DNA from: Alphaproteobacteria bacterium
GTDB lineage: Bacteria; Pseudomonadota; Alphaproteobacteria; UBA828
Length of the DNA stretch: 64,000 bases
Reading direction: 5' to 3'
Assembly: GCA_965214705.1 (NCBI GenBank)
Contig: OZ243972.1
Span: 2,656,001-2,720,000 of the forward strand
This document shows, one piece after another, positions 37,431-64,000 of the stretch. The notes beneath the pieces were generated by a model. The model searched no databases and had not been told where the DNA came from. It was given only the letters and a program-made list of their open reading frames with translations. Both the position numbers and the translations under genes were made by a program. The stretch's first letter is position 1. Every line of letters starts with the position of its first letter.

Positions 37431-37435
37431 TCGTC

Positions 37436-38372: not shown

Positions 38373-38459
38373 AATGCCGAGAAGGTTGTAATGCCGAGCG
38401 GGTCGCGGGGATCGGCTTAGTTCTGCCGTTTTCCTGCCGATTCGCTCGGCATTAATTGT
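38368..38459 (+). repeat. RIT left inverted repeat (92 bp)
   Basis: Reverse complement of 42015-42106 with one mismatch; contains repeated TAATGCCGA motifs. Confidence 0.95.
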
Positions 38460-38517
38460 TGGGGTCGGTTCTCCGACAAAGTCGTCCTCCCTTTCAATCG
38501 GATGGAGGACGACAAGA

Positions 38518-43295: not shown

Positions 43296-43370
43296 TCACA
43301 CCTGACTCACCGATGGTGCAGGGCTGCAACCTGTCGTACGCCTGCGTAGTCCCGCGTAGTTGCGCGTAGA
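43296..43370 (-). other. Candidate MOBF-type oriT (nic-like site plus phased repeats)
   Basis: Minus strand GCACC-ATC-GGTGA-GTCAGGTGT^GAG resembles R388/pKM101/F hairpin+nic architecture; GCGTAG at 43344, 43354 and 43364 (10-bp period); upstream of an RHH gene. Confidence 0.55.
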
Positions 43371-46664: not shown

Positions 46665-49600
46665 ATGCGGTGCATCACGCGCATCCACCTCTCCGACTGC
46701 GGCTGGCACGAGGCGTACTATCCGGGCACGACCGTCCATCTTGCCGATCCGCGCACGGGCAAGCCCGTGCACACGGTGTTCAGCCTGGAGAACACAGGCG
46801 GCAAGACGTCCTTCCTGTCCCTGGTGCTGAGCTGCTTCGACACCAGCGAGCGGCGCTTCCTGAAGACGCTGATCCGTTCGAACCAGAAGTTCGGGGACTA
46901 TTTCGGGGAGGTGCCGGCGTTCATCCTGGTGGAATGGGACCTCTCCGGCGGGCAGGCGGGCCTGCTGGAGACGGAGCGCCTGGTCACGGGTCAGGTGGTG
47001 GTGCCGCGGGGCGAGGGCCGCCAGCGCGAGCTGGAGCGCCGCTTCTTCACGTTCCGGAGCGCGCCGGGCCTCTCTTTCGACGCCATCCCCGCGCCGGGGC
47101 TCGAAGGGTTCGAGGAGCACGGCCGCCTGAGGGGGCATCAGGACGTGCAGCGCTGGCTGCACGAGATGCGCGCGGGTCATCCCGGCAACTTCCAGGATTT
47201 TTCGAAGCAGTCGGACTGGAAGCGGAAGCTCGCCGAAGAGAAGATCGACACGGAGCTTCTGGCGGCGCAGGTCGAGTTCAACCGCAGCGAAGGCGGCATC
47301 GAGGATTTCCTGGATTTCCGGAGCGAGGCGCAGTTCCTGCGGAAGTTCCTGGCGATGACGGTGCCGGACGGGGAGGCGGGTGCTGTGCGGGGTCTGCTTG
47401 CCGAGCACGTGGCGAAGCTCTCGGACCTGCCGCGCCTGCAGCGGCGGCGGGACGCGATGCGCCGTCTGCAGGAAAAATTCGCGCCGTTCGTGGACATCGC
47501 CGCCGGGGCGCACGCCGCGCAGGAGGAGGTCTCGCGGCGCAGCAGCGATGCGTCCTCCCTCAAGGCGGCGCTGGACGAACACGCGGATAGGGCCCGTCGG
47601 CTTGCAGAAGAGCGCGCCGGGGCTGCGGAAGAGCACGAGACAGCCGCCGGCGAAGCCGAGGCGGCATGCGGGAGCGCGAGAATCGAGCTCGCCTCCGCCG
47701 CCGTCGAGACGGCGCGGCGGAGGCACGAGGCCGCCGAAGCGGCCGCCGTTGCCCGCGAGGAGGAGCGCGGACAGGCGCTCGGGCACAGCCGTCTTCTCCA
47801 AGGCGCCGTGTCGATGCGCGGCATTCTCGACGACCGGGACCGGAGCAGGGCGCTGCAGGAGGCGATCGACGCGGAGCATGCCGACCTGCAACCGCGCCGG
47901 GATGCGCTTTGCGCGATCGGCGCGGATCTCGTTTCCACCCTCAATGGGCGCGCCGGGACGTTGCGCGAGCGCCAGCGCGCCCTGTCGGCCGAAGCCCGAG
48001 AGCTGAAGGGGGCGGCGCGCGCGGCCGACGCCGAGCGGGCGGCGGCATCTGAGACCGCGCAGATGGAACACCGGGAGGCGGCGCAGATCGACGTCGACCT
48101 GGGTCATGCGCGCGAATTCCGCGCCAAGCTCGAGGAAGAGCAAGTACTCGAGCCCGGCGAGGGCGCCGATGCGGCGGCGCGGCGCCACGCGGAGGCTGCA
48201 CGGGCTGCGGAAGAAGAGGCAGCCGCGTTTCGCCGTCGGGCCGAGGAGGCGGACCTCACCGCCGCGCGGCGCCGGGAGCGCCAGGGCGACCTCAAGGCCG
48301 AGGGCTCGGTTCTGGAGACCGAGGCGGCGCGGTTGCGGGAAGCCGCCCGCGAAGGCGAGGAGCGGCGCCGGGGCCTGGCCTTCGATCCGACCCTGCTCGA
48401 GCTCGGCGGCGAGAACGAGGTCGACCCGGACGCTGACGCCGCCGGTAGGATGCTGGCGGACGCCAGGAGCGGGTGCACGGCCAGATTGCGCAATGACGAG
48501 CGGCGGCAGGAGGTTCTTCAGGCCGACCGCGAGTCTCTCGAAGCGACCGGCCTCGCGTCTATCGACGCGGACGTGCGCACCGTCGCCGGGCGGCTCCGCG
48601 ACTCCGGCATCGCCGACGCCCAGCCCTATGCCGTCTACCTCTCCGACATCCTGCGTTCGCCGGGAGAGCTCCGCCGCTTCGCCGAGCTTGACCCGGCCCG
48701 CTTCGCCGGTGTCGCCGTTCCCAACCGGAATGCACTCGATGCGGCGCGCCGGATGCTGGAGTCCGTCCCTCCGCTGAGCCGGCCGGTGACCGTCGCGGTC
48801 GCAGGCGACTCGCCGGGAGAGGAGGCGCATGACCGCTTCGTGCTCCCCGTGGACGAGCCGGCCGCCTACGACCGGGCGGCCGCCCGCGACCTGCACCGCC
48901 GGATCGAGAACGATCTGGCCGGCGTGGCGTCGTCGATCGACGCGCAGCAGACGCGGATCGAGCACCTGGAGGCCGTCTTGCAGGAGATCCGGGCGTGGCG
49001 GGAACGCTTCGGCGACGGCCGGCTCGACGGGATGCGGCGGGACATCGAGCGCAAGGACACGCGGATCGCAGAGATCGCAGGCGAGATTGACGCGCTGTCC
49101 GGCCGGATCGAGGCCGCCGAGCGGGACGCCCGGGACTGCCGCAGCAGGGCGGGCGAATGCGATCGCCAGGCCCATGCGTCCGCCGAGCGCGCGCGCCGTG
49201 CCGCCGAACACCACGCGCAATGGGGCTCGCGGGTCGACGGCTGGCGCAAGGCACACCTCGCTCACCGGCAGCGGGCGGCTTCTGCCGAACGCCTCGCCCA
49301 CGAGAAGGAGGCGGAGCGGGATGGTCATACCAGGGAGGCTCGTGCCCGCGAGGACGAGGCGGCAAACGCCGCAAGCATGGCCTCGGACGTGGAGCGCGAG
49401 GCGGGCGGCGTCGCCTACTCGGGACCCGGCGGAAGGGCGGACGGCAATCTCGACACGTTGCGCGGCGCGTACGATCGCGAGCTCGAGGCGCTGACGGCCC
49501 TGGAGCAGGAGCGGGTGGGCGAGTTGCGCGGCCAGCGCCTGGAGATCGAGCGCGCCCTGGCCGAAAAGGAGGACCGCTTCGCGGAGGCGTTCGGCGATCT

Positions 49601-51032
49601 GGAACGCGCCGTGGTCGAGACCGAGGCGGCGCGCGACGGCCTGCGGGAGGCTGCCGCCGGCGCGGTGGCAGCGCTCGAAACGGCGCGCGAGGCTGCATCG
49701 GCCGCCCGTGCGGAGGCGGACTCCGCGGAGAGGGACTACCGCACGGAGAAGGAGAGGCGCACACGGGAGATCCGCCCCGAGCCGCTGACCGACCTGCGTT
49801 CGCTCGCTCCGGAGGCGCTTGCCGGCGTTGAACCACGGGCGGAGTTGGCCATCGTCGAGCAGGAAGCCGTCGCCTCGCGCGAGGCGGATGCCGCGCGGCG
49901 GGCGCGCGAAAAGGCAGCTGGACACGGGCGGACGGCCGCGTCGTGCGCAGACTGGGCCGCCACCCTCGCCGGCGTCCTGGGCGCCGACAGCGCTCCGGCG
50001 GAAAGGATGGAGCTCCCGCGCGAGGACGAGGTGGCCGCGCTGGTCAGCGACACCGTCGCCGCGCTCGGACGGGCTCGCGACGACCTTGGCGAGGCGCACA
50101 AGGCCGTCTACGAGAGCTACGACGACATCCGCAGGTTCACCAGCTCTGACGCCTTCAGGGAGCTCGAGAGCGAGCGGGAGGTCGCCGCGCACCTCGGCGC
50201 CAACGATCCGCTGGCCGCAGCGGAGAACGCGGAGAGGACGGCGGGCCTGATCGACGACCGCCTGAAGACCATCGAGCACGACCTCTCGCGCCTCGACGAA
50301 GACCTCGAGGCCTGCGTGGCGGAGCTGGAACGTCTGCTTCGGACTGCCCTGCACATCCTGCGCCGCATGGTCCGCGACGGGCGCATCCCGGACCACGTGC
50401 CCCGCTTCGGGGGGCAGCCGGTGTTCCGCATGAGCGCCGACCTCTCCCGGGTCGCCGCCGACCAGCGCAGGGAGATCCTCCGCAGCTACGTCACCGACCT
50501 GGCGGAGGCCGACCGGATCCCGGAGACGGGCCAGGACATCACCTCCGAGCTGGTCGAGCGCATGACCGCGGCGCTGGGCAGGGACTCCCTCGGCATCCGG
50601 CTGCTGAAACCCAAGGGCGAGGGCGACACCGAGCACATGCCGATCGACCGGGTGAGCGTCTCGGGCGGCGAGTTGCTGACGGCCGCCATGATGATCTACC
50701 TGGTGCTGGCGCGGCTGCGCGCGGAGGCGATGCACGTCGGCGCGGGCGAGGGCGGCATCCTCATCATGGACAACCCTTTGGGAAAGGCGAACAAGGCCCT
50801 GCTGCTGAAGACCCAGATCGGTCTCGCAGACGCCATGGGGATTCAGCTCTTCTACACGACGGGAGTGCAAGACACGAACGCGCTGGCCGAGTTCGAGAAC
50901 ATCGTGCGGCTGCGGCGCATCGGCCAGTCGCGCGGCTCGCGCCGCATCCATGTGGAAGTCGAGGCCATGCGCGCCCATATCGACAGGCGGGTGGTCGAAG
51001 ACACCGCAAGGCCGGCCGTGGCCGCCGAGTAG
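46665..51032 (+). CDS. jetC: Wadjet JetC SMC-like ATPase (type III-like)
   Basis: Walker A LENTGGKTS, long coiled coils with central hinge, signature SGGE and Walker B ILIMDNPLGKA. Confidence 0.85.
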   Translation: MRCITRIHLSDCGWHEAYYPGTTVHLADPRTGKPVHTVFSLENTGGKTSFLSLVLSCFDTSERRFLKTLIRSNQKFGDYFGEVPAFILVEWDLSGGQAGLLETERLVTGQVVVPRGEGRQRELERRFFTFRSAPGLSFDAIPAPGLEGFEEHGRLRGHQDVQRWLHEMRAGHPGNFQDFSKQSDWKRKLAEEKIDTELLAAQVEFNRSEGGIEDFLDFRSEAQFLRKFLAMTVPDGEAGAVRGLLAEHVAKLSDLPRLQRRRDAMRRLQEKFAPFVDIAAGAHAAQEEVSRRSSDASSLKAALDEHADRARRLAEERAGAAEEHETAAGEAEAACGSARIELASAAVETARRRHEAAEAAAVAREEERGQALGHSRLLQGAVSMRGILDDRDRSRALQEAIDAEHADLQPRRDALCAIGADLVSTLNGRAGTLRERQRALSAEARELKGAARAADAERAAASETAQMEHREAAQIDVDLGHAREFRAKLEEEQVLEPGEGADAAARRHAEAARAAEEEAAAFRRRAEEADLTAARRRERQGDLKAEGSVLETEAARLREAAREGEERRRGLAFDPTLLELGGENEVDPDADAAGRMLADARSGCTARLRNDERRQEVLQADRESLEATGLASIDADVRTVAGRLRDSGIADAQPYAVYLSDILRSPGELRRFAELDPARFAGVAVPNRNALDAARRMLESVPPLSRPVTVAVAGDSPGEEAHDRFVLPVDEPAAYDRAAARDLHRRIENDLAGVASSIDAQQTRIEHLEAVLQEIRAWRERFGDGRLDGMRRDIERKDTRIAEIAGEIDALSGRIEAAERDARDCRSRAGECDRQAHASAERARRAAEHHAQWGSRVDGWRKAHLAHRQRAASAERLAHEKEAERDGHTREARAREDEAANAASMASDVEREAGGVAYSGPGGRADGNLDTLRGAYDRELEALTALEQERVGELRGQRLEIERALAEKEDRFAEAFGDLERAVVETEAARDGLREAAAGAVAALETAREAASAARAEADSAERDYRTEKERRTREIRPEPLTDLRSLAPEALAGVEPRAELAIVEQEAVASREADAARRAREKAAGHGRTAASCADWAATLAGVLGADSAPAERMELPREDEVAALVSDTVAALGRARDDLGEAHKAVYESYDDIRRFTSSDAFRELESEREVAAHLGANDPLAAAENAERTAGLIDDRLKTIEHDLSRLDEDLEACVAELERLLRTALHILRRMVRDGRIPDHVPRFGGQPVFRMSADLSRVAADQRREILRSYVTDLAEADRIPETGQDITSELVERMTAALGRDSLGIRLLKPKGEGDTEHMPIDRVSVSGGELLTAAMMIYLVLARLRAEAMHVGAGEGGILIMDNPLGKANKALLLKTQIGLADAMGIQLFYTTGVQDTNALAEFENIVRLRRIGQSRGSRRIHVEVEAMRAHIDRRVVEDTARPAVAAE

Positions 51033-51033
51033 C

Positions 51034-52068
51034 ATGGGCTCGTTCGGGGAGGAACTGCGCGCGCTGGGCAAGCGGCGCATCCGCCTGCCCGAGCTGCGTA
51101 CCGCCTGGCTCCGCGCCCACCCCGAAGCCCGCGACCAGCCGGAGCAGAGGTGCCTGCTCCTCGACGCCCTGCGGGGCCTTGAGAGCGAGGGACTCGTCGA
51201 CCTTCCGAAACGGGGATGGGATACCTCGGGCTCGCCCGCGCTTCCGCGCACCGCCAGCCTCCGGCATGCGGCGCAGAACCGGTACACCCGGACACCTCAA
51301 TCCTGGCTTCCTGCCCTGGCCTTCGCCGCGGGCGAGCGCCACCCCGTGCGGCGTGCCGACCTACAGGCCGTCAACGCGTACCTTCTTTCCGTGCGCGGCA
51401 GGGAGCCCGTGCCGGCGCCGACGAGGGAACGCTCGCTGCAGATATTCGGGGACGAAAAGCGGCTCGACGACCTGCGCAAGGGCGATCCGGCCCTGTTCGA
51501 GGGCCGCGTCACGCTGGCCGATCTCCACTGCTATCCCGTCGCCCCGCCGCTGCCGCACGAAACGCCCCTGAAGCTTGAACCGGGTCGGCCGATCCTGGTG
51601 CTGGAGAACTATCACTCCTGGGACAGCTTCCGCCGATGGAACCGCGACGCTGCGCTCTACGCCGCGATCGCCTACGGCGGCGGCAACGCCTTCCGGCAAG
51701 GCGCCGGCAACCTGGACGATCTGGTGGAGAGTACGCTGGCGAAGGGCGCCATGTACCTCGGCGATCTCGATCCCGCCGGCGTCCGGATACTGATCGGGGT
51801 CAACCGGCGGCGGCAGTCGGAGGGGCGGGCGGTTCTGAACCCGCATCGCGGCCTCTATCGCTGGCTTCTCGCGCACGGCCGCCGGTGTCCCCTGGAGCGG
51901 ACAGCGGAGAATGCGGAGGTCGACGGTCTGGTCGACGTGTTTCCCGCCGACCTCGCGAGGGCGCTGGTGGGGCTCTGGTCTGCAGGGCAGCGCATTCCGC
52001 AGGAGAGCTTTGGCATGGCGCAACTCTCGGGAGTCGAATCCGAATTCGCCGCGCCTGATGCCGGCTGA
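51034..52068 (+). CDS. jetD: Wadjet JetD Toprim nuclease (DUF2220-like)
   Basis: ERSLQIFGDEK, ILVLEN, AYGGG and YLGDLDPAGVRI (Toprim E and DxD). Confidence 0.85.
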   Translation: MGSFGEELRALGKRRIRLPELRTAWLRAHPEARDQPEQRCLLLDALRGLESEGLVDLPKRGWDTSGSPALPRTASLRHAAQNRYTRTPQSWLPALAFAAGERHPVRRADLQAVNAYLLSVRGREPVPAPTRERSLQIFGDEKRLDDLRKGDPALFEGRVTLADLHCYPVAPPLPHETPLKLEPGRPILVLENYHSWDSFRRWNRDAALYAAIAYGGGNAFRQGAGNLDDLVESTLAKGAMYLGDLDPAGVRILIGVNRRRQSEGRAVLNPHRGLYRWLLAHGRRCPLERTAENAEVDGLVDVFPADLARALVGLWSAGQRIPQESFGMAQLSGVESEFAAPDAG

Positions 52069-52111
52069 CGCGTGGGGCGGAATGTTGCGGTGGGGACATT
52101 CCCGCCGATGA

Positions 52112-52126
52112 ATGCGTGGGGTGTGA
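52112..52126 (+). repeat. Left copy of 15-bp direct repeat containing an F-type nic core
   Basis: ATGCGTGGGGTGTGA, preceded by a CATTC/GAATG hairpin; identical to 58550-58564. Confidence 0.8.
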
Positions 52127-52355
52127 GACCTAAACGCCGCAGGGCGTAGAGAATCGCACTTCCTCCGTGCATCCGCGAGGCGCTGAAAGCCCCGTAGACA
52201 CAACGGCTTGCAGCCCGCGCGGCGTTTGAGCGCGGCACTTCCGACCCTTCCCATCTTCGGACCCGCCGCCGTTACCCGGCGTGTCCTGGGTGTTCCCCAA
52301 CGGGGACGCCCGCGACGCGCCGGTCGCGACCGAAACGAACGGGAGGGATCGGAAC

Positions 52356-53497
52356 ATGGCGAACAGAACGAAGATCACGATGGCGGGCGTGCGCGCCTTC
52401 GCGACTGCGGACGGACGCGAGGCCGTGCTGTGGGACAGCGCGGCACCGGGGCTTGGTCTGCGGGTGCGCTTGAATGGGCGCAAGACGTGGATCGTGCACC
52501 GGCGCTGCAACGGCTTGGTCGTCAAGCGGACGCTCGGCACGCTCGACGCGCTGACGGTCGAGGACGCACGGCACGCGGCGCGGGCGCTGCTCGCCGACGC
52601 CGAAACGGGCGGCGCGGCGGCGGCGGTCCCGACCGTGCGGACATTCGCGCCGGTGTTTCTTGCCGACTGCGCCGAACGCTGGAAGCCCTCGACGCGGGAA
52701 GCCTACGCGCATACCGTGCGGCGCTGGATACTGCCCGCGTTCGCCAACCGCCCGGTCGATGCGATCGGCGCTAAGGATGTGCGTCCTTGGCACGACGACA
52801 TCGCGGCCATGTATCCGGGCTCGGCGCACTGGGCGCTCGCGGCGATGTCGTCGATGATGAAGCACGCCGAGGCACTCGGCCTGCGGCGCGAGGACTCCAA
52901 CCCGTGCAAGGGACTGCGGCGGCGCAAGACCGGCTTCGAGGCGCACTACCTGACGGACGACGAGTTCGCCGCGCTCGGTCGGGCGCTCGACGGCGCGGAA
53001 GCGGATCATCCGGTCGCCGTCGCCGTGGTGCGCTTCCTGCTCTACACCGGCGCGCGCAAGTCCGAGGCGCTGCGGCTCAAGTGGGAGCATGTTCACGGCG
53101 ACCGCGCGGTGTTGCCCGACTCGAAAACCGGCCCGCGCACGATCTGGCTGGCGTCCCCGGCCCGCGCCGTGCTCGCGGCGCGGCTACGGCGCACCAATTG
53201 CCCTTGGGTGTTCGCTTCTCCCTGCGGCGGGCCTGCGACGGTGGACAGGGAATGGAACGCGATCCGCGCGGCGGCGGGCCTGCCGACGCTGCGCATCCAC
53301 GACCTCCGGCATAGCCATGCGGCGGTCGCGGTCAACGGCGGCGAGGGCCTGCGCGTCGTCGCCGGGCTGCTCGGCATGCCGACATCAAGACCACCTTCGG
53401 CTATGCGCACCTTGCCGAGGACTCCGTGTTCGACGCGGCCAACCGGGTGTCGCGCGGCCTCGCCGACATGCTCGACGGCGGGGAGGCGGGCCGATGA
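52356..53497 (+). pseudogene. Arm-binding-domain tyrosine integrase 1, frameshifted
   Basis: WDSAAPGLGLRV arm domain, TGARKSE, SKTG and HDLRHS; CTCGGCATGCC at ~53370-53380 lacks 1 nt of LGH; the shifted frame continues HADIKTTFGYAHL to TGA at 53497. Confidence 0.85.
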
Positions 53498-54654
53498 CCG
53501 AACGCGCCCGCCTGACCGATGCGCTCGCGCTCGCGGCTCGTCCGCGCGAGCGCGAATACGCAATCCACGATACCGCCCTGCAAGGCTTCATGCTCCGCGT
53601 CCAGCCGCACGGCGCGCGGTCCTGGGTGTTCCGCTTCCGCCGCGACGGCAAGCCGCGCCGCGTCACGCTCGGTAAGCCGGACGCGGTGAAGGCCGACCAG
53701 GCGCGGGCCGCCGCGCTCGCCTTCCTCGCCCGCGAGAAGGGCGGCGGGAGTCCCGTGCCCCTTCCCGCTTCCGGCCCGACGCTGGCGAAGTTCGCCGCGG
53801 AGTATGTCGAGCGGCGCTCGCCTTCATGGAAGTCGTCCACGGTGAAGGCGACCCTGAGTTACCTCAACAGCGCCATCCTGCCCGCGCTCGGCCATCTCCG
53901 CGTCGGCTCGGTCGTGCGCGCCGATGTCGCCCGCTTCTTCCACGAATACGGACGCAGAAAGCCGGGCGGCGCGAATCGAAGTCATGACATACTGCGCAAC
54001 ATGTTCGACTGCGCCATCGTGTGGGGCCATCGGCCCGAAGCCGCCGGGAACCCGTGCAAGGGCATCGTCCGCTACCGGCGACCGCCGCGCGGGCGGCTGC
54101 TCGGCGCGGACGATCTGGCGAAGCTCGGCGCGGTCCTGCGCCAGCGCGAAGACGAATACCCGGTTTGCGTTGCGGCGGTGCGGCTGCTCCTGCTGACCGG
54201 GTGCAGGCCGGGCGAGATACGCCGTCTGCGCTGGTGCGAGGTCAAGCCGGACCGGCTCGCGCTGATTGACGCGAAGACGGGACCGAGGCACGTTCTGCTT
54301 GGCGAGGCGGCGCGGGAGCTGCTGCATGGCCTCGCCGAAATGGCGTCTGGAGAGTGGGTGTTTCCGGGCGGCAAGGGAAACGGGCCGTTGAGTACGAATG
54401 ACCTTTGGGCGTTCTGGACCAAGGCGCGCGATGCTGCCGGTATCGTGGCGGATGCGCGGCTGCATGACCTGCGTCATGCGCACGCCTCGCACGCGGTCAT
54501 GAACGGCGAGAGTCTGCATGTCGCGGGGCGCTTGCTCGGGCATCGCCGGGCCACAACGACCAACCGCTACGTCCATCTCGACGACGCGACCCTGAGCCAA
54601 GCTGCAGAACGGGTAGCGGTGGCGATTCAACGGCGACTGTGGCACTCTCCGTGA
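53494..54654 (+). CDS. Arm-binding-domain tyrosine integrase 2
   Basis: HDTALQGFMLRV arm domain, TGCRPGE, AKTG, HDLRHAHAS and LLGH...TTNRYVH; ATGA overlap with integrase 1. Confidence 0.92.
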   Translation: MTERARLTDALALAARPREREYAIHDTALQGFMLRVQPHGARSWVFRFRRDGKPRRVTLGKPDAVKADQARAAALAFLAREKGGGSPVPLPASGPTLAKFAAEYVERRSPSWKSSTVKATLSYLNSAILPALGHLRVGSVVRADVARFFHEYGRRKPGGANRSHDILRNMFDCAIVWGHRPEAAGNPCKGIVRYRRPPRGRLLGADDLAKLGAVLRQREDEYPVCVAAVRLLLLTGCRPGEIRRLRWCEVKPDRLALIDAKTGPRHVLLGEAARELLHGLAEMASGEWVFPGGKGNGPLSTNDLWAFWTKARDAAGIVADARLHDLRHAHASHAVMNGESLHVAGRLLGHRRATTTNRYVHLDDATLSQAAERVAVAIQRRLWHSP

Positions 54655-55085
54655 TGGACAACACCAAACTCTATTCCGAGGGTTTCATGTACATTGAAGA
54701 AACGATTGCAACAATCCTTATATCTGCTCTGGTTTCTGGGTTGCTCGCAACCTGCGTTTCCTTCTACCTAAATCGCAAACACACCAAAGACTTGATAAAG
54801 CGGGACGTCCACCGACGTCTCGTAGGCAATCGTTCCGTTTTGACTAAACCGGGTGTCGGGGTCAAGGGCGAGCCCTTCATCGCCTTGAACGAGACGTTTG
54901 TAGTATACGCGGCACATCCGGAGGTCATTTCCGCCCTCCGCAAGATGCATGAGGAACTCGCCTCACCAGATCGAATGCCCGACAACCTAGTGAGTCTCGT
55001 CAAAGCTATGGCTAAGGCCGCGAAGGTGCCTATTCATCAGCTAAACGACGATTTTTTCCTGCGGCCATTCACTCCACCATCTTGA
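54654..55085 (+). CDS. Hypothetical protein with N-terminal TM helix (possibly DUF6680-like)
   Basis: IATILISALVSGLLATCVSFYL hydrophobic segment, ALNETFVVY; TGATG coupling to the integrase; lower GC. Confidence 0.65.
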   Translation: MDNTKLYSEGFMYIEETIATILISALVSGLLATCVSFYLNRKHTKDLIKRDVHRRLVGNRSVLTKPGVGVKGEPFIALNETFVVYAAHPEVISALRKMHEELASPDRMPDNLVSLVKAMAKAAKVPIHQLNDDFFLRPFTPPS

Positions 55086-55100
55086 GTTCTGGTGGTTTCT

Positions 55101-55586
55101 ATGGTGGATACTAGAACTCCAGAACAACGCCGACGCATTATGCAGGCAGTCAAGAGCGAAAACACCGCGCCAGAGCTGATCGTCCGACGACTGTTGCATG
55201 GAATGGGCTATAGATACCGACTTCATCGCACGGACCTGCCTGGGCGACCGGACATCGCCTTAATCTCGCGCCGAAGAGCTATCTTCGTTCATGGTTGCTT
55301 TTGGCATGGTCACGACTGCCGAAAGGGAAAGCTGCCCAAATCGCGCCTCGACTATTGGGGACCGAAACTAGAAAGGAACAAGGAACGCGATAAAGAAAAG
55401 GCGGAAATGCTAGAATCATTAGGTTGGGGGGTGCTCGTAGTGTGGCAGTGTGAAACGGTCGATCTTGTCGCACTTACGTCACGACTTCATGAATTTATTG
55501 GTAGCAGAGATTTCCGATTGAAACAAAAGGTAGACCTCCGCAATTCTGCCAACATTAGAGTCGAGAAACGAGAGGCGGCGTCATGA
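55101..55586 (+). CDS. vsr: Very short patch repair endonuclease
   Basis: R.RIMQAVKSENTAPE, DLPGRPDI, FVHGCFWHGH and VVWQCE. Confidence 0.95.
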   Translation: MVDTRTPEQRRRIMQAVKSENTAPELIVRRLLHGMGYRYRLHRTDLPGRPDIALISRRRAIFVHGCFWHGHDCRKGKLPKSRLDYWGPKLERNKERDKEKAEMLESLGWGVLVVWQCETVDLVALTSRLHEFIGSRDFRLKQKVDLRNSANIRVEKREAAS

Positions 55587-56914
55587 GACCTATCGGTGTA
55601 GACTTGTTTTCTGGCGCAGGTGGGCTTAGCTTGGGATTCGAGCAAGCGGGATTCGACATAGTCTCTGCCGTCGAGATCGATCCTGTGCACTGTGCGGCTC
55701 ACAAGTATAACTTTCCGCATACAGTTACCATTCCTAGATCTATCGAGGAAGTCTCCGGCAAACATATTCTAGAGATGTCGGGAGTCGGACAACGCGAAGT
55801 GGATTGCGTTTTCGGTGGCGCTCCCTGTCAGGGATTCTCGTTAATCGGTCACCGAGTACTTGACGATCCTCGTAATCGATTAGTTCGGGAGTTCGTTCGT
55901 ATTGTTGTTGAATTAGAAGCCCGAACGTTCGTATTCGAAAACGTGAAGGGATTGACGGTTGGCAAACACCGAGCGTTCTTGGATGAGCTAGTCGATGAGT
56001 TTTCACAGGTTGGCTACAGGGTACGGGTCCCTTGGAAGGTTCTGAACGCCGGTCACTTCGATACTCCACAAAGTCGGGAACGACTGATCCTCCTTGGTGC
56101 GAGAGTTGGAGAAGTTTTGCCTGAGTATCCCGCCATTCTGACCAATATCGCCGCTGGGCGCAATCACGTCGAGGGTCTGCCCATCGGGCCGACATGTACG
56201 GATGCTCTAGGGGACCTTCCCGACGCGGATCGATTTCCGACTCTGATTGGCTCGGATGCCGTGATTACGTCTTCGTTCCGCAAGCCGTCGATGTATGCGG
56301 CACGACTTCGATGTCTCACCAACGACGCTTGGCACTTCGGTTATGTGCGGGAGTGGAGGCCCGGGATGCTGACATCGAGTGCTCGAACGGCACACACTCC
56401 CATTTCGCGCAAGCGGTTTAGTCATACGAAGTCGGGGACAGTGGAGCCTATCAGCAGATTTTTCAAGCTTTGTGAATCGGGTGTCTCAAACACCCTCCGC
56501 GCCGGAACGGACGGGGCACGAGGCGCGTTCACGAGCCCGCGCCCTATTCACTATAGGTATGATCGCTGTATTACCGTGCGCGAGATGGCAAGATTGCACG
56601 GTTTCCCTGACTGGTTCCGCTTCAATGCAACGAAATGGCATGGTGCACGACAGATCGGCAATGCCGTACCGCCGCCGCTGGCGAGAGCTATAGCCGGAAA
56701 GGTGGTCGAGGCTTTGGGAGTTAGACCAAGCAGGCCGGTGAAGCCAATCCCGTTAGGCGATTCCGCGCTCCTTTTGTTCGATCTTTCCCAAGCTGCCGAG
56801 TTCTTCGGGGTGAAACCGTTACCCAGTCGCCGCGACAGAAAGAGCGGAGCGAAGAAACGCAAGCAAATTGAGATCGAGCGTGAACGCATGGCAGAGAGCA
56901 AGGCTCATGCCTAA
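55583..56914 (+). CDS. DNA (cytosine-5) methyltransferase
   Basis: DLFSGAGG, GGAPCQGFS, FENV, PQSRER and RQIGNAVPP. Confidence 0.95.
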   Translation: MRPIGVDLFSGAGGLSLGFEQAGFDIVSAVEIDPVHCAAHKYNFPHTVTIPRSIEEVSGKHILEMSGVGQREVDCVFGGAPCQGFSLIGHRVLDDPRNRLVREFVRIVVELEARTFVFENVKGLTVGKHRAFLDELVDEFSQVGYRVRVPWKVLNAGHFDTPQSRERLILLGARVGEVLPEYPAILTNIAAGRNHVEGLPIGPTCTDALGDLPDADRFPTLIGSDAVITSSFRKPSMYAARLRCLTNDAWHFGYVREWRPGMLTSSARTAHTPISRKRFSHTKSGTVEPISRFFKLCESGVSNTLRAGTDGARGAFTSPRPIHYRYDRCITVREMARLHGFPDWFRFNATKWHGARQIGNAVPPPLARAIAGKVVEALGVRPSRPVKPIPLGDSALLLFDLSQAAEFFGVKPLPSRRDRKSGAKKRKQIEIERERMAESKAHA

Positions 56915-57680
56915 ATCGCTAAACCGATATCAGGCACTCATCGAGAAGGTGTTCTTCGATCACTTTGAAGAAGGGCTGACCGAGTTCGAATTCCTGCGCG
57001 AAGAACTCGAAGAAGGTGCTGCGTCACTTGGATTCGCTCGTGTGAAGAATATTGGGGATGTTCCTTACTCTTTTCGATACCGGAACAAGCTACCTGACAG
57101 CGTTTTGGATACACAGTCGAAAGGCCGCGAATGGATAATCGAGGGCGCGGGTAAAGGACGCTATCGATTTCGGCTAGTTAAGCAAACGCGTATAGAGCCA
57201 CGGGCTGATCGAGTTGTCATAGATATACCGGACGCAACGCCGGAGGTAATTCGGGCATACGCATTGGATGATGAGCAGGCCCTCTTGGCGATTGTTCGTT
57301 ACAATCGGTTGATTGACATATTTCTTGGCCTGACGACCTATAGCCTCCAAAATCATCTTCGAACGACCGTAGAGGGCATGGGGCAAATCGAGATTGATGA
57401 ACTCTACATCGGACTCGATAAGAGCGGCGACCACTTCGTTATCCCTGTTCAAGCCAAAGGCGGGAAGGATCACATAGGTATCGTCCAGACTACGCAAGAT
57501 ATCCGGTTTTCCGAGCAGAGATTTCCTAATCTTGCGTGCCGGGCAATTGCGGTGCAGTTTATGGATGACCAGATCGTCGCACTATTCGAGCTAACCCTTC
57601 GAGGCGACGACATCAAGGTCGTGGAAGAACGACACTACAGGTTGGTTCCAGCCGAGGACCTGAAACGGGATACGAGATAG
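56907..57680 (+). CDS. Putative type II restriction endonuclease
   Basis: Overlaps the MTase stop; QIEIDELY...PVQAKGG PD-(D/E)xK-like motif. Confidence 0.7.
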   Translation: MPKSLNRYQALIEKVFFDHFEEGLTEFEFLREELEEGAASLGFARVKNIGDVPYSFRYRNKLPDSVLDTQSKGREWIIEGAGKGRYRFRLVKQTRIEPRADRVVIDIPDATPEVIRAYALDDEQALLAIVRYNRLIDIFLGLTTYSLQNHLRTTVEGMGQIEIDELYIGLDKSGDHFVIPVQAKGGKDHIGIVQTTQDIRFSEQRFPNLACRAIAVQFMDDQIVALFELTLRGDDIKVVEERHYRLVPAEDLKRDTR

Positions 57681-57741
57681 GCTAGGATGCACGCCCATGG
57701 TTTGAGACAAAGCCCCTTGGCGCGGGCGTCGGTGAAACAGA

Positions 57742-58323
57742 ATGCCTCTAACCACGTTGACAAGGCTGAAAGACGAGCTTCTGGACCTCTACGGAGAAGA
57801 CCAGATAGCGGTGTTCGCGACGACGACCGCGCGCAAGCAAGTGGATGACTGGTTGAAAGGCGGAGCGACCAAGGTCAACAACAGGCTGTCATTTGGGCAG
57901 GACGACCCCAATGAACCCGCAGCCGTTGCCGACTACTCGGTGACCTTCGCCGAGCTTCTTGCTCGATTAGATTCTGCCAGCCGACAGGCCAAGGCCGTGC
58001 GCGCAAGGTTGATCGTGTTCGCCTATACATTGTGGGAGAAGGTCTATCGACCGGCCATCAGTCGGGAGTGCGGCGTGGATCGCATAGACAGCGATGCGTT
58101 CGGAGATTTGCGTCTGTACCGACACGCCATCCTCCACCACAAAGGGAAGCTGGATACCGACACCACAGCTCTGACGGTGTTCGGCAAGGGCGACCTCATA
58201 GAACCGACCGCTGATCAGCTACGCGAGGTTTTCAAGCAGTTGGTGGTCGGACTCATCGACATAGGGGTACGCTACTACGGAGAGGACCCCGGTTTCGAGT
58301 GGGGACGCAAACTGAACCCGTAG
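57742..58323 (+). CDS. Hypothetical protein
   Basis: 193-aa ORF; contains R-HAIL-H (RHAILH), an Rx4H motif. Confidence 0.6.
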   Translation: MPLTTLTRLKDELLDLYGEDQIAVFATTTARKQVDDWLKGGATKVNNRLSFGQDDPNEPAAVADYSVTFAELLARLDSASRQAKAVRARLIVFAYTLWEKVYRPAISRECGVDRIDSDAFGDLRLYRHAILHHKGKLDTDTTALTVFGKGDLIEPTADQLREVFKQLVVGLIDIGVRYYGEDPGFEWGRKLNP

Positions 58324-58549
58324 GGCAAGTGTCGGCTCGGCTGTCAGAAAGTGTGCCAGCAATTCAGATTGAGCCATTACCTGAGATAGGCGAGGGGTGA
58401 CGGACATGCTAGGTTCGTGTCCTGAGAGTTGGGCGGGTACGGAGTAAGAGGAAGTCGGAATAAGGCTGCTGTGGGTTCTCAAGCCACTGAAATAGCATCC
58501 TTTTTTTCAGGCTAGGGTGCGAGGGCACGGGGCTAGTCTAGCATCCCGG

Positions 58550-58564
58550 ATGCGTGGGGTGTGA
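58550..58564 (+). repeat. Right copy of 15-bp direct repeat containing an F-type nic core
   Basis: GCATC-CCG-GATGC-GTGGGGTGT^GA hairpin plus nic architecture; identical 15-mer at 52112. Confidence 0.8.
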
Positions 58565-59068
58565 TGCTCCGGCCGCGTGCCCCGTATTGAGACCCCGAAG
58601 TGAAGCGCGCGGGCTGCTGATCGTCACAGTTCCAGTTCGAGCTCGTATTCGATCGTCTTGGGCCCGCGCTCCTTCACCGGCTCCGGCGCCTTCGCAGGTT
58701 CGGGTGCCCGCGCGGGTCGGGGTGCCGGAGCGGGCGGCTGCTCCCTCTCCGGTTCCGGCGTTCTCGCGGGCGTGGGCCGTCGTGTCCTTTCCGGCTCGTG
58801 GGCCGGCGCCTCGGGTCGGGACTCCGGTACCCGGTCCCTGGCGGGCGCAGGCGCCGTCCTTCTCCCGGGCTGTCGAGTCGGTGACTCCGGCCGTGCCTCC
58901 GTCCTCGGACTCCTTGCAGTTGCGGTCGGACGCATCGTCGCGGGTTCGCCGGCCAGCCCGTGCCGCTCGATCTCCCTTTCCCTGCTCGTGGCCGCTTCGC
59001 GTGCCTGCGCCTGCCTGGCCTGCTCCATCCTCCTCGCCAGTTCCGCCGCAGCGGCGACGCCCTCTAGT

Positions 59069-61228
59069 CCCAAGTTGGCACTTTTTCCGACCAGCCGAGC
59101 CTGTTCGAGCCAGTTTTGCGGCGCTGAACCACTAGATGTTGGGGTTGGAGGACACCTGAGACCCACATTTGCCATTCGTGGTCCTGGAAGCCAATTGTGG
59201 GGCCAGGACTTTGGAGTTGAGTCGATATCCCTCTTGCCAGATGCCGCGAACGCCGTGTATGCGAAACAGGCATCGCAGAAACGGCGCCGCCATGTACATC
59301 AAGGCAACCAGGACACACACCGACAAGGCCGGCCAGCCGGTCCGAAGCCATCGCCTCGTGCTCGCCCAGCGCGTCGGCGACAAGGTGCGCCACAGGACGC
59401 TGCTCAATCTCGGCACCGACTATCCGGTGCCGCGCGAGAAGTGGAAGGCCGTCACCGAACTCGCCGAGGCGCTGCTTCACGGCAAGCCGCCGCTGTTCGA
59501 GGGCGAGGCGGATGTGCGGGCCGCAGCCGAGGACATCGTCGCCAAGCTCAGGGCCAGGGGGTTCCGCGTCGAGGCGATGCAGGAAGAGGCGCGCAAGCCC
59601 GACATCGCCACCGTCGACCTCGATACCCTGGAGCACGAGAACCCGCGCACGGTCGGCTGCGAGCGCCTGTGCCTCAAGGCCCTCGACGCCCTCGGCTTCG
59701 CCGAAATCCTCCACGGCCTCGACATCAAGGGCCGCGACGGGCGCATCGCCAGCGCGCTGATCGTCGCCAGGATGGTCCATCCCGCCAGCGAGCGTGATAC
59801 CAGCCGCTGGCTCCGCCACGACAGCGCGGCCGCCGAGCTCCTGGGCCTGGAGGGCGACCGCAAGGCGCTGCGGCGCAAGACGCTCTACCGCATCGGCGAC
59901 CTGCTCTGGCGCCACCGCGCCGCCATCCAGCGGGAGCTGTTCAACCGTGAGCGCGCACTGCTCGACCTGCCCGAGACGATCGCCTTCTACGATCTCACCA
60001 ACGTCCACTACCACGGCCACACGGGCGGCGAGCTTCCCAGGTTCGGGCGCTCCAAGCAGAAGCGCGACGACTGTCCCCTCATCACGCTGGCGCTGGCGCT
60101 CGACGGCGCGGGCTTCCCGCGCAGTTGCGAGATCCTGCCGGGCAACGTGAGCGAGCCGGGCACGCTGCACGAGGCGCTGGCGCGGCTCGAGGCGGTGTGC
60201 GGCGGCACGGCGCCGAAGCCCACGGTGGTCATGGACGCGGGCATCGCCACCGAGAAAAACATCGCGTGGCTGGGCGAGCAGGGCTACGACTGGATCGCGG
60301 TCAGCCGCGGTGCCAGGCCTGCGCCGCCCGAGGGCGGACCCGAGGCCCTGCTGATCACCAGCGCGCGCCACGAGGTGCGGGCCTGGCGGCTTGCCAGCGA
60401 GGACGGCGAGGCGCGGCTCTACGTCGTCAGCGAGGGCAAGAAGAAGGCCGAGAACGCGATCATCGGCCTGAGGCGGAACCGCTTCGAGGCGGCGCTGGAA
60501 AGGCTCCACGGCGGCCTTGCGGTCAAGGGCCGCCTCAAGCGCTACGACAAGGTGCTGGAGAGCATAGGCCGCCTCAAGCAGCGCTTCTCCGCCGTCGCCA
60601 GGCACTACGAGATCACGGTCGAGAGGGCGAAAACCGGCCCCAATGCCACCGCCGTGCGCTTCAAGCGCAGGCCGCGATACGACGAGGCCGATGAGGGCGC
60701 CGGTGCCTATGTGCTGCGCACCAGCCACGTCGACTGGGACATCGAGACGGTCCTGCGGACGTACTGGCGGATCACGGATATCGAGGCGACATTCCGGAGC
60801 CTGAAATCCGAGCTCGGCCTTCGCCCGATCTGGCACCAGCTCGACCGGCGCATCGCGGCCCACCTGCTGATCGCCGTGCTGGCCTACCACGCCGTGCATC
60901 TGATCCGTACCCGGCTGGCCGCGCGCGGCATCCACAAGTGCTGGGCGTCGATCCGCGAGAGCATGCGGACCTGGGTGCGGATCACCACGCGCCTGCGCCA
61001 GACCGACGGCACCTTGATCGTCAACCGCCAGGACACGCGCCCGGCCGCCGAGGTTGCCGCAATCTCCTCGGCGGCGGGCGTGGACCCCGCCATCCACCGC
61101 ACGAGGACCCGTCTGATGAGCTGACAGAATCTCACAAAATGTGGGGCCATGTTGGAATCGACCGAGAAAAATATCGCGTTGAATCAAACCAATAGGGAAC
61201 ACAGGCAGCGGAAAAGTGCCAACTTGGG
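59069..61228 (+). mobile_element. IS1634-family insertion sequence (2160 bp)
   Basis: 17-bp perfect terminal IR CCCAAGTTGGCACTTTT; TAGT duplicated at 59065-68 and 61229-32; removal restores relaxase VSALEGVAAA. Confidence 0.92.
59292..61124 (+). CDS. IS1634 family DDE transposase
   Basis: FYDLTN, FGRSKQKR.D, VVMDAG, IEATFRSLKSELGLRPIWH and HLLIAVLAY. Confidence 0.92.
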   Translation: MYIKATRTHTDKAGQPVRSHRLVLAQRVGDKVRHRTLLNLGTDYPVPREKWKAVTELAEALLHGKPPLFEGEADVRAAAEDIVAKLRARGFRVEAMQEEARKPDIATVDLDTLEHENPRTVGCERLCLKALDALGFAEILHGLDIKGRDGRIASALIVARMVHPASERDTSRWLRHDSAAAELLGLEGDRKALRRKTLYRIGDLLWRHRAAIQRELFNRERALLDLPETIAFYDLTNVHYHGHTGGELPRFGRSKQKRDDCPLITLALALDGAGFPRSCEILPGNVSEPGTLHEALARLEAVCGGTAPKPTVVMDAGIATEKNIAWLGEQGYDWIAVSRGARPAPPEGGPEALLITSARHEVRAWRLASEDGEARLYVVSEGKKKAENAIIGLRRNRFEAALERLHGGLAVKGRLKRYDKVLESIGRLKQRFSAVARHYEITVERAKTGPNATAVRFKRRPRYDEADEGAGAYVLRTSHVDWDIETVLRTYWRITDIEATFRSLKSELGLRPIWHQLDRRIAAHLLIAVLAYHAVHLIRTRLAARGIHKCWASIRESMRTWVRITTRLRQTDGTLIVNRQDTRPAAEVAAISSAAGVDPAIHRTRTRLMS

Positions 61229-64000
61229 TAGTGCCGACACGCGCTCCCCGGTCGCGGCCTCCAGGCGGTCGCACAGCGCCTTCGCGTCGTCCGTCACCAG
61301 CTCCGTCCGGTGCCTCGCACGGCTGATCTCCACGTAGAAGCTCTTCTGTGTGGTCAGGTGGGGGTGATTGGCCTCCATCACCGCGATCACGTTGTCCACC
61401 GTGCGACCCTGGAACGCATGCACCGTCGATGCCCAGGCATGATCGAGATGGCGCAGCTGCGGGTCGTGGCGACCCAGCTCCAGCTTGCAGCCGTCCTCAA
61501 GCAGGAACGAGACCCGGTCGCCCCGCACCGCCGTCACCTCGGCCGCGTGGCTGTTCACCAGCCCGAGCGTGGCATCGTTGCGGGTCCAGCGGATGCGGTC
61601 GCCCGCCCGAAGTTCTATCGGCTCGCTCCGGTATACCTCCACCGCGCCGCGGCTCGCTCCTACCTGGCGCGGGCGCCAGGGCACAGCCTCGCCGTCCGCG
61701 CCTTCCAGCATGACAATGCCGCGCGCACCGTCGACCTCGCGCACCCGGCGCTCCTCGCCTTTCTCCACGCCGAGGCTCTTGTAGGCCCGGTGGAAGGCCA
61801 CCACGTCGCCCTGCGCGTAGTTGGCGGCCTGCATCTTTTCGGCCGCGGTGCAGCCGCGCGACACCAGCCGCTCGCCCTCCAGGGCCGAGCCGTGGATGAC
61901 GCCGTCACGGGCGAGGCGCTCGCGGATGTGCCCGTTGACCGTCTGGCGCAGCTCATGGCTCGGCGCCATCAGTCCGGTGTTCTCCCGCTCCTCAAGCGAG
62001 AGCTTCAACCATCGAGCGGCCGCAGCACCGGCGAGATTGTCGGGCTTCACCTCCGCGACACGGTCGCCTAGCCTGTCGAACGCGGCACGGACGTCGCCCG
62101 CCAGGCTGGCCCGCACCGCCTCCTTCAGCGCCGGGTCCTTCTGCCGCAGGATATCGTCCATCACCACGGTCTTCATGCCCGCTTGCTGAAGCTGCGCGAA
62201 GGGCTTGCCCGCATCCACGGCGTCGAGCTGCTTCTCGTCGCCCACCAGCACCACCCTCGGGATCCTGAGCCTGTCGGCGATCCGCAGCAGGTCACGGGCC
62301 TGGACGGTGGATGCCAGAGAGCCCTCGTCCACCACCAGCACCGTCTTGCGGAAGGCGGCCCGCATCTCGCGCTCGCCCCTGGCCGTCAGCCGCCCCTCGG
62401 CCACGCCTGCGTTGCGCGCCAGGAACCGCTGCAGGGTCTCGCTCCGGATGCCGGCCTCTGCTGCCAGCGTCGCCGTCGCAGACGCCGAGGGCGCCAGGCC
62501 GATCATCCGGTAGCCGCTCTTCTCCGCGAGCGAACGCGCGCGGTCCAGCATCGCGGTCTTGCCGGTGCCGGCATAACCCTGCACGCCCACCACCCGGTCC
62601 TTCGAGGAGAGGATCGCGGTGACCGCGTCTTTCTGACCCTCGGTCAGGCGGCCATTGTGCAGCAGCGGCTTCGCCATCCAGCGCCGCATCACGGGCTTCG
62701 ACCTGCCTTGCCCGCGCTGCATGAGCGCGACGGTCTCGGTCTCGTCGATGAGGGCCTTCTCGGTGGTGAGCGCGTCGCCCAGCACGGGCGTCCTCGCGGC
62801 ATGCAGAGTGCCCGCTTGCTCCAACCGCTGCACCGCTCCCTCGGCCTCGCCGATGGTGACCTTGCCGGGGCTCCAGGCAAGCGTGGCGGTGAGCAGGTCG
62901 GTGCGGGCGAACACGGCCTCGCGTTCCGAGAGGTGTGCCACCGCCCAGGCGGCGGCGCGGTCCGCATCGCTTGTCCTGCCGGGCTCCGCCTCACGGTTGT
63001 AGCCGGTAGAAGGTAGGGAGCGCGCCCGATGCGCCGCCTGCCGGTGCCGGGCCTCGTTCACGAGGTCCCGTGCGTCGAAGCCCAATTCCGAGGCCTGCCT
63101 CTGCCAGGTCTCCCGCAGCGCCTCCTTGTCTACGTCGCGCTTGTGCGAGCGGGTCATCAGCGCCGCGCGCTCGGCGACCCGCTGGTTGCTTGCAGGATCG
63201 CCCAGACCCTGCGCCTCCATCGCCGCCTCACGCGCCGCATCTCCGCTCGGCGCGTGGAGAAGGCCTCGACGACCTTGCGCGAAACCCCCGCAATCTCGAA
63301 GCGCCCGTCGGCATGGGTCTTCTCGACCGCGTAGCCCAGATCCTTCAGCCCGCGCGCCAGCTCGGCCCGGTAAACTGCGCCGATCAGCATCTTGGACGCA
63401 TAGAGCTTCTCGTTCGCCATCGTGCGCCACTTGCCGGACCGGGGCGCTCCCCTTTCGCCGCCCTGCACCATGTTGGCGATCACCGCGTGCGTATGCAGCT
63501 GTGGGTCCAGGTTGCGGGACGTGTCGTGCCGGAACGTGGCTGCCACGATCGACTGATCGCCGGCGCGCACCATGCGCCCGAGCTCGGGGTCCATCATCCT
63601 GGTCTCGGCCGCGTTGGCCTCGATCCAGGCCAGTGCCTTGCGCACGGCAGCGTCATGGGCACCGACGATGCGCTCGTCGCCGCCGACCAGCGCGGCAAGG
63701 GAGACGGACTTGGGGGCCGAGAAGGCGAGGTCCCTGCCGGGACGGTGGTCGATCTCGCCCTCCCTGTTCCTGCGGCCCAGGCGTAAGCCTGAGCCGTCGG
63801 GGACTTCGCCGGCGAGGACGTCGATGAAGATGTCCGGGTCGACGGAACCCTCCAGGCCCAGCGCCTCCGCTCCCTTGCCGAACCAGGCGCTGGCCTGCCG
63901 GTGCGCGGGATCGTCCTTCGCGTAGTATCCGTCGCGTTCGTAATAGGAGACGCCCTGGGAGGGCGAGGCAACTGCGCCGATCGAGACCACCATCAGTAGA

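Follow-up and report, generated by a model that had tools for sequence, protein, structure and literature searches.

Small integrative elements that settle in the transfer origin (oriT) of a larger conjugative element are known from streptococci. These integrative mobilizable elements, termed IME_oriT (Libante et al. 2020, PMC7563843), insert into the oriT of an integrative conjugative element (ICE) by means of a tyrosine integrase and have the ICE as both host and helper, and some copies occupy secondary chromosomal sites. The iOriT islands (Ares-Arroyo et al. 2026, 10.64898/2026.01.13.699239), reported in a preprint that covers 6 nosocomial species, are likewise integrative and carry an oriT without relaxase or mating-pore genes; hitchhiking on ICEs has been proposed for them and defence genes are found near their oriT. 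The present analysis concerns a cassette at positions 52112-58564 of a 64-kb stretch of an alphaproteobacterial genome (the window, to which coordinates refer). This cassette is probably a small integrative element in which twin P4-type integrases use a conjugative-transfer nick region as the attachment core. Unlike the IME_oriT, which have one integrase, their own Rep_trans-type relaxase and MobT-type origins and reside in Firmicutes, the cassette has two tandem P4-type integrases, no relaxase that could be found and a MOBF nick hairpin; its joined ends copy an oriT, its cargo and that of its relatives is mostly restriction-modification (RM), and its hosts are labelled as many phyla. By the definition of iOriT islands, a helper-like oriT in an element without relaxase or mating-pore genes, the cassette would, as judged from sequence, fall among them, as its joined ends reproduce the layout of native sites. 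In the cassette, however, the oriT-like sequence is itself the attachment core and is split between the ends on integration, and the abstract of the iOriT preprint contains no statement of this kind.

A mobility module of tandem tyrosine recombinases is also found in Tn554-type and recombinase-in-trio (RIT) elements (PMC3414803), although their recombinase families and end structures differ from those of the cassette and no link to an oriT is described there. The bipartite module (BIM) was considered as a home for the twin integrases and was rejected because a BIM consists of one recombinase and an unrelated protein (PMC3414803). In the literature searched, no account of a MOBF nick used by twin P4-type integrases was found.

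The cassette is bounded by a 15-mer, ATGCGTGGGGTGTGA, of which exactly two copies occur in the window, both on the + strand and 6438 bp apart. The left copy (attL core, 52112-52126) begins 44 bp past the jetD stop (52068), and the right copy (attR core, 58550-58564) ends 60 bp before the stop (58624) of a relaxase remnant on the minus strand. The predicted nick (^) lies at 52124/52125 in the former, GTGGGGTGT^GA, and at 58562/58563 in the latter, which together with position 58549 includes the proximal hairpin arm GATGC. No third copy was detected in the window at up to 2 mismatches, while shuffled-sequence controls gave a mean of 0.16 matches and reached two matches in 1 of 100 shuffles. The spacing, strand, intergenic location and offsets of the two copies given in the initial annotation were all reproduced, as was the set of genes said to lie between them (int1, int2, a small protein, vsr, a methyltransferase, a restriction endonuclease and a hypothetical gene), and the 15-mer, whose genome-wide abundance would have spoken against its significance, proved rare, with 5 exact copies in the 7.9-Mb source genome (G000) and 0 in a reversed control. 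The hairpins that were supposed to precede each core fared differently. On the right, GCATC-CCG-GATGC (58541-58553) is real and conserved, whereas on the left CATTC..GAATG falls outside the minimum-energy fold (z -0.1) and its distal arm is flank DNA homologous to the empty sites of relatives described below. A larger hairpin suggested across the right copy is marginal, since 58515-58590 folds at -18.2 kcal/mol compared with -13.8 +/- 2.2 for shuffles (z -2.0; 10 of 200 equally stable); one of its arms is element and the other flank, and it is probably a chance product of G+C-rich DNA. The lower G+C content that had been described as ending before the right copy is confined to the cargo (50-58% at ~54.3-58.5 kb) and does not extend to the integrase genes, which are 70-72% G+C. 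The three further exact 15-mers in G000, at C2:465504(-), C2:486176(+) and C2:552110(+), each have a hairpin GCATC-NNN-GATGC and sit within a repeated segment (<=4.7 kb, 96% identical) with Slam-like, DUF3187 and outer membrane protein beta-barrel genes to its left; two of these copies are mutually inverted and 20.7 kb apart.

Insertion of the cassette was evident from a search with the natural 9.5-kb stretch at 50600-60100 against 60 relatives and the source genome itself (below, G-numbers denote genomes of relatives, L-numbers loci in other genomes and X-numbers sequencing runs). G005 and G010 both have the 3' end of the relaxase gene ~115 bp past the end of jetD, with the cassette absent, and in G014 both window flanks are joined (...cgccaacggATGCTTCGG...ccggccgcgcccc). 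Given these empty sites and joined flanks, the cassette is an inserted mobile element.

The boundary of the inserted DNA was placed at the core by comparison with related elements. A search with int1, limited to one genome per species, returned 43 loci with 28-89% protein identity, mostly 56-89%, and when window 52061-52356 was compared with these loci by blastn, homology (70-93%) began at 52108-52120 in 27, that is, in 27 of the 31 with any arm homology. In 4 of the remaining loci homology started further in, and 12 had no match or no upstream sequence. DNA to the left of the core boundary was unrelated in every case, and the same boundary was found in G013 and G008 at 87-89% DNA identity. 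In run X2, the loose end of one contig falls immediately ahead of 52112. Right ends were delimited in ten elements (those of the window, G013, L035, L038, L040, L047, L048, L053, L055 and L059), and the six with both ends mapped are 3.7-6.7 kb long. The suggestion that homologous twin-integrase loci should have the motif upstream and again after their cargo thus held, with the left boundary at the core in 27 loci and ten right ends found. The broader expectation of the motif upstream of every twin-integrase pair was abandoned; only the window pair, of 63 integrase clusters in G000, has it within 900 nt, the others belonging to a different family. These 63 P4-type clusters, which include 39 pairs, and the ~33 TrwC relaxase homologs described below constitute a very heavy load of integrative elements. 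Tandem arrays were noted at L035 (positions 3313, 9762 and 15850) and also at L038, L058 and L059, where the window-type pair faces another twin-integrase pair (36-42% identical), the two being head to head on either side of a single hairpin and core site; these arrays contain an additional site 6-9 kb upstream with a P'-like arm that is 70% identical.

Both integrases have Arm-DNA-bind_3, SAM-like and catalytic domains according to Pfam. The first, int1 (52356-53675, +), is a P4-type tyrosine recombinase in which a frameshift after ...VVAGLLG (~53374-53385) removes the HADIKTTFGYAHL end, so that the Pfam catalytic match stops at hidden Markov model position 155 of 172. The lost C-terminal end is present in another frame, is retained in six relatives with proteins of 376-381 aa, and other contigs have an extra C after 53374. 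The second, int2 (53494-54654, +), is an apparently intact tyrosine recombinase of 386 aa (Arm-DNA-bind_3, Phage_int_M and Phage_integrase 26-170/172) and is 78-94% identical in relatives. Thus, the catalytic domain of int1 is not intact in the window, the frameshift lying ahead of the region of the catalytic Tyr, while both genes are intact in relatives. With int1 frameshifted and the neighbouring relaxase gene broken, the window copy can probably no longer move by itself, except with the help of paralogs in trans.

The DNA that joins these genes and the cargo to the two cores is also conserved, over ~230 nt on the integrase-proximal side and ~150 nt on the distal side. The proximal arm (P', 52127-52355, +) is 75-93% identical in the 27 loci and contains a second small hairpin, CGCC-gcag-GGCG, followed by TAGAG, as well as CGTGTCCTG at 52280-52288; GTGTCCT was found at +161 to +171 of this arm in 26 of 27 relatives. 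The distal arm (P, 58416-58549, +) has the same CGTGTCCTG at 58416-58424, then an A-rich stretch and the distal hairpin arm GCATC (58541-58545) with its loop CCG (58546-58548). All 8 aligned right ends share this plan, in which CGTGTCCTG stands ~134 nt ahead of the core and is accompanied by an A-rich stretch and by a hairpin of 5 bp abutting the core, and the right ends of L038 and L047 were located by means of the motif. Both arms of the window copy contain CGTGTCCTG, a candidate site of the arm type to which the arm-binding domains of the two integrases could bind. From end to end, the element consists of a core, the ~230-nt arm, two tandem integrase genes, swappable cargo, the ~150-nt distal arm with its 5-bp hairpin, and the core again. 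When attL and attR were compared in L035 and L059, the hairpin stem and the left half of the core differed, and the common part was GG(G)TGTG plus some downstream bases. This shrinkage fits hybrid sites produced by crossover in a 6-8 bp overlap, although crossover at the nick would look alike. A direct core repeat at both ends, integrases beside one end and an empty site in relatives are the features by which integrative elements of the P4/lambda type are recognized, and all three were found.

With regard to the nature of the core, comparison with published substrates makes a MOBF nic very probable. The oligonucleotide of F oriT with which TraI has been studied is TTTGCGTGGGGTGT^GGTGCTTT (PMC2504302), in agreement with the F plasmid nic given in the initial annotation, and TGCGTGGGGTGTG of the core matches it at 13 of 13 bases. 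The R388 substrate is GCGCACC-GAAA-GGTGC-GTATTGTCT^A; it needs its proximal arm, the 8-9 nt ahead of the nick and a purine after it, and tolerates change in its distal arm and loop (PMC4176350). Sites in L035 and L040, GCACC-atc-GGTGC-GTGGGGTGT^G, have the stem and spacing of R388, and the right copy in the window (58541-58564) consists of GCATC-CCG-GATGC, GTGGGGTGT and GA, that is, a 5-bp hairpin, 9 nt, the nick and a purine. The sites thus combine the F nick sequence with the GCACC/GGTGC stem, 9-nt spacer and purine of R388, and adjacent relaxases have the TrwC domain; unlike the cleavage-mapped nic sites of F and R388 (PMC2504302, PMC4176350), they are known from sequence and flank an integrase cassette as direct repeats. 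The consensus is a hairpin, the 9 nt GT[GC][GA]GGTGT, the nick and a purine. A perfect abutting stem was noted at 32 of 100 distinct GT[GC][GA]GGTGT[GA] sites from the genome and the other-genome loci as opposed to 0 of 52 reversed sites, and the stems (GCATC, GCACC, GCGCC, GCAG, GCACT) vary by compensatory changes. When joined, the ends of the cassette would give a hairpin, the core, a second small hairpin and TAGAG, as at native sites. A palindrome, GCGCGCATGCGC, was also seen between the relaxase gene and the site, either 15-20 nt upstream of the hairpin (L036 and L072) or ~300 nt upstream (L066); an accessory protein might bind there.

The association of such sites with one group of relaxases was apparent within the source genome. 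G000 contains ~33 TrwC relaxase homologs, which fall into identity classes of ~70-87%, ~50% and ~35%. A hairpin and core was found within 45 kb of 8 of the 9 relaxases that are >=70% identical to the window's, six being downstream on the same strand, as opposed to only 3 of the 24 other relaxases, two of which neighbour a member of the clade. In the 60 relatives, the 13-mer had 75 matches compared with 6 for a reversed control, and at least 19 of 63 motif places shared strand and contig with a relaxase match whose start lay 3.6-11.6 kb upstream, which puts them 0.3 kb or more past the stop of a relaxase gene of ~3.0-3.6 kb. On the 3' side of native sites are genes for YAcAr/SLOG, Toprim/DUF7146 and SSB proteins, on the strand opposite the motif and pointing at it. 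Leading regions of plasmids are marked by SSB genes and by a uniform orientation that allows transcription of the transferred strand (PMC11541004), and the orientation of the YAcAr, Toprim and SSB genes agrees with this rule, so that the placement of the sites fits that of an oriT. Native sites therefore have an oriT neighbourhood, with the cognate relaxase beside them and the leading region 3'; the copies of the window cassette are oriented opposite to the relaxase.

Relatives of the cassette occupy the same positions. In L036, L064, L066 and L072 a clade relaxase (55-72% identical) ends 0.4-1.7 kb left of the left core on the same strand, in L059 and L038 YAcAr starts 0.3-0.45 kb right of the right core and points at it, and in L065 and L058 YAcAr, Toprim or SSB genes follow downstream. 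To judge by these gene neighbourhoods, the relatives are inserted at true oriT positions, flanked on one side by the relaxase and on the other by the SSB/primase-like leading region. Integration in the oriT of a host element was noted for L036, L064, L066, L072, L038 and L059 but not for the window copy. Among 28 left junctions, 13 have a perfect in-register hairpin, compared with 117 of 1084 control positions.

Two explanations had been offered in the initial annotation, capture of the cassette by relaxase strand transfer or a MOBF nic that serves paired integrases as their attachment core, and the latter is favoured by the empty sites, the core boundaries in 27 loci, the conserved arms, the oriT-like placement of the sites and the presence of relatives in origins. 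Relaxase strand transfer may still be a route by which the cassette is transferred, as distinct from the way in which it was inserted. Under this explanation, int1 and int2 would catalyse integration and excision at the core, between the joined-end site and an oriT or oriT-like target. The joined ends of the resulting circle mimic an oriT on both sides of the nick, and the circle would thereby carry a working oriT. As the cassette has no relaxase of its own, mobilization by the relaxase and mating apparatus of the host element is proposed, acting either on the excised circle or on the integrated copy with its two direct nick sites; in the integrated state, the relaxase could also start at the left nick and end at the right one.

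This last possibility, taken further, leads to a different account of transfer. The T-DNA of Agrobacterium is delimited by two direct relaxase-nick repeats, contains no integrases and is delivered to eukaryotic cells. Like the T-DNA borders, the cassette ends are direct repeats of a putative nick sequence around a potentially transferable segment, although border-to-border processing is only a proposal here. In a T-DNA-like account, the cassette would be transferred from the chromosome, left nick to right nick, by the host relaxase, the only non-coding region of the molecule recircularised in the recipient would be oriT and attP at once, and the twin integrases would then act there, perhaps on a folded single strand; the whole twin-integrase superfamily, with dozens of islands per genome, would be living on relaxase nick hairpins. 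We regard this account as unlikely.

A further step is to make the relaxase the recombinase itself, with TrwC-type nick-to-nick strand transfer integrating, excising and transferring the cassette and the integrases having an accessory part, such as resolving or stabilising the product. Several results are in line with this view. Both cores keep what TrwC needs, namely the proximal arm xATGC, 9 nt and a purine after the nick; integration by TrwC at copies of nic has been reported (PMC2504302 and PMC4176350, citing Draper 2005); element boundaries lie within 1-2 nt of the predicted nick; and in 21 of 28 left junctions TGC is retained ahead of GT, also where a distal arm is missing, as expected if the proximal arm is essential and the distal arm dispensable. 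On the other hand, a relaxase-only mechanism has no need of two conserved integrase genes that are always beside the core or of arms with a repeated motif. Moreover, variants of the left half of the core such as CGTTTTGGGGTGTGA or GTTCCGGTGTGA would be poor relaxase substrates if specificity were as strict as that of F TraI (PMC2504302), and tandem arrays at one site, as in L035, are typical of accretion by integrases. Recombination by the relaxase alone is accordingly considered distinctly improbable.

The preferred explanation, twin integrases acting at a nic-type core, has a number of observations weighing against it. The initial annotation had called for a search for the empty site in related genomes; empty loci exist, but the 15-mer is absent from all three, the segment being missing in G005 and G010 and matching at only 10 of 18 positions in G014, so that a perfect 15-bp target in the ancestor of the window is left unexplained. 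Neither an excision joint 52112-58564 nor a circle junction at the core was found in contigs of runs X17, X18, X1 and X2, in which rare forms are invisible; contigs of four runs span both cassette junctions as in the window, and one low-depth joint (57845>51075, depth 3) lies away from the core. Fifteen of the 28 left junctions, including that of the window copy, are hairpin-less secondary sites, and many insertions therefore lie outside complete origins. The labels of the int1 loci (Alpha-, Gamma- and Deltaproteobacteria, Acidobacteria/Terriglobia, Nitrospinota, Gemmatimonadota, Binatia and Pedosphaera) are the record titles of metagenome-assembled genomes, though mis-binning does not fully account for the spread since at least seven of the loci are on records of 3.8-6.0 Mb. 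The host elements are described as putatively conjugative or mobilizable. Finally, a hairpin and GGTGT recur in a second, larger family of islands with a variable 6-nt middle that no single relaxase could read, and the hairpin could thus be a feature of integrases rather than of relaxases.

Taken to its conclusion, the latter point would make the likeness to nic incidental, the hairpin and GGTGT being a signal of the twin-integrase superfamily and the native sites being junctions or scars of other islands. In G000, 34 integrase-proximal ends of the second twin-integrase family have the form flank|ACACC-N6-C-GCACC-NNN-GGTGC-TAAC (reversed control 0), and for at least 10 of them the same 10-11-mer (ACACC plus variable bases) occurs again behind a conserved end, of which there are two types, at a distance of 14-58 kb downstream. 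Homology between motif sites, too, often stops exactly at the motif. However, several pairs of sites are homologous for kilobases straight across the motif, and an incidental likeness is difficult to reconcile with the match to F nic at every base and the R388 spacing, with the tie to a single relaxase clade or with the fixed polarity, in which the relaxase lies 5' on the strand of the motif, with SSB, Toprim and YAcAr located 3' on the opposite strand. We therefore hold this possibility to be very unlikely. Examples of the second family, all outside the window, are at C1:2483543(+), C3:3018804(+) and C1:1456150(-); its 2.39-kb two-integrase module is ~97% identical in 6 places, and read on the other strand its ends show a hairpin, 12 nt, GGTGT and flank, again like a relaxase nick. 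A chance repeat around an ordinary immobile gene cluster, for which the G+C-rich sequence and the two loose matches in 1 of 100 shuffles might be cited, can be dismissed in view of the empty sites, the 27 loci with the same boundary, the conserved arms and the absence of matches in reversed controls.

The genes between int2 and the distal arm, all on the + strand, include those of a type II RM system with Vsr, as identified by PADLOC from the methyltransferase, endonuclease and Vsr genes together. In order, the genes encode a 148-aa protein (54639-55085), put down as a putative transmembrane protein in the initial annotation, the Vsr very-short-patch endonuclease (55092-55586; PF03852, E 1.5e-31; PADLOC Vsr, E 1e-28), a C5 cytosine DNA methyltransferase of type II (55583-56914; PF00145, E 3e-60; PADLOC MTase_II, E 1.9e-169), a type II restriction endonuclease (56868-57680; PADLOC REase_II PDLC03404, E 3.6e-123; nearest atlas clusters auto-named 'endonuclease') and a 193-aa protein (57742-58323). 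The 148-aa and 193-aa proteins had no Pfam, NCBIfam or PADLOC match. A type II RM system was noted in 4 of the 7 elements compared for cargo, a number that includes L055, the cargo of which was unscanned, and each of the four systems is different. Thus, in addition to that of the window, L035 has an N6_N4 methyltransferase with Mrr_cat, L048 has Mrr/NOV_C with a large methyltransferase, and L040 has an ApaLI-like endonuclease with a methyltransferase. Other cargos are a Slam-like protein and an unknown 870-aa protein in L059 and a metallo-beta-lactamase-fold protein in L053. No relaxase was detected by Pfam, NCBIfam or PADLOC among the open reading frames (ORFs) of the cassette, or in the cargos of relatives that were examined.

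The surroundings of the cassette in the window correspond to those at the orthologous locus of G005, where a relaxase gene (minus), Wadjet, a 514-aa gene and an oriT (minus) are followed by YAcAr, Toprim and SSB genes that point at the oriT. The window has the same order. Its native oriT-type site, GCACC-atc-GGTGA-GTCAGGTGT^GA, occupies 43296-43319 (minus strand), the place orthologous to G005 C4:2114586; a scan of window 26-64 kb for perfect stems of >=5 bp misses this site owing to one mismatch in the proximal arm, and it was found by synteny with G005. The leading-region genes for SSB, Toprim/DUF7146 and YAcAr (34868-38347, +) were assigned by tblastn at 83-90% identity to L015 proteins and by Pfam on paralogs, and all point to the native site. 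A type III Wadjet operon, jetABCD (44494-52068, +; PADLOC JetA3, JetB3, JetC3 and JetD3), is 87% identical to that of G005. There were no Pfam matches for JetA, JetB, JetC or the restriction endonuclease of the cassette, all of which were identified by PADLOC. Since the operon lies between the relaxase gene and the oriT both in the window and at G005:C4:2122256-2130500, Wadjet would belong to the part of such a conjugative or mobilizable element that is transferred last. The TrwC-family (MOBF) relaxase gene (58624-64000, -; PF08751, E 1.9e-75, and AAA_30) runs off the window, shows a homology gap relative to G005 and is broken by an insertion sequence at ~59057-61229 (2.2 kb) and by a frame change near 63157-63430, its open frame being 315 aa as opposed to ~1000-1100 aa in paralogs. 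The insertion point of the window's cassette, between jetD and the 3' end of the relaxase gene, is a secondary site; the cassette lies 8.8 kb from the native oriT and is inverted relative to it, so that the origin itself was missed.

Other mobile elements were also noted in this part of the genome. The insertion sequence in the relaxase gene has a 651-aa DDE_Tnp_1 ORF (59169-61124, +) and copies that are 99-100% identical at C3:3009987, C2:695913 and C1:2147823. An RIT element at 38392-42015 (+), with proteins of 524, 383 and 426 aa, interrupts the leading region at a point between YAcAr and the native oriT and is 99.97% identical over 3740 bp, in inverted orientation, to a copy beside the nic-type site C1:4043992. 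The same type of flank (aagcgcgc.aagcgtcgag) directly follows the nic-type core at C1:4043994 and C3:50085.

To our knowledge, elements that parasitise an oriT have been tested experimentally only in Firmicutes, where they bring their own relaxase, and islands with an oriT only have been proposed just recently, from few clinical species. In the family described here, one short sequence appears to act both as recombination core and as nick site, so that neither a relaxase nor a separate oriT is needed. At 56-89% protein identity, the family occurs, according to record labels, in Alpha- and Gammaproteobacteria, Acidobacteria, Binatia, Nitrospinota, Gemmatimonadota and a Pedosphaera-labelled genome. 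In view of the different RM systems carried and this wide labelled occurrence, such elements would be a route for defence genes between phyla within one community. They also offer a concrete system in which a long-standing question could be tested, namely whether relaxases recombine DNA from nick to nick in nature.

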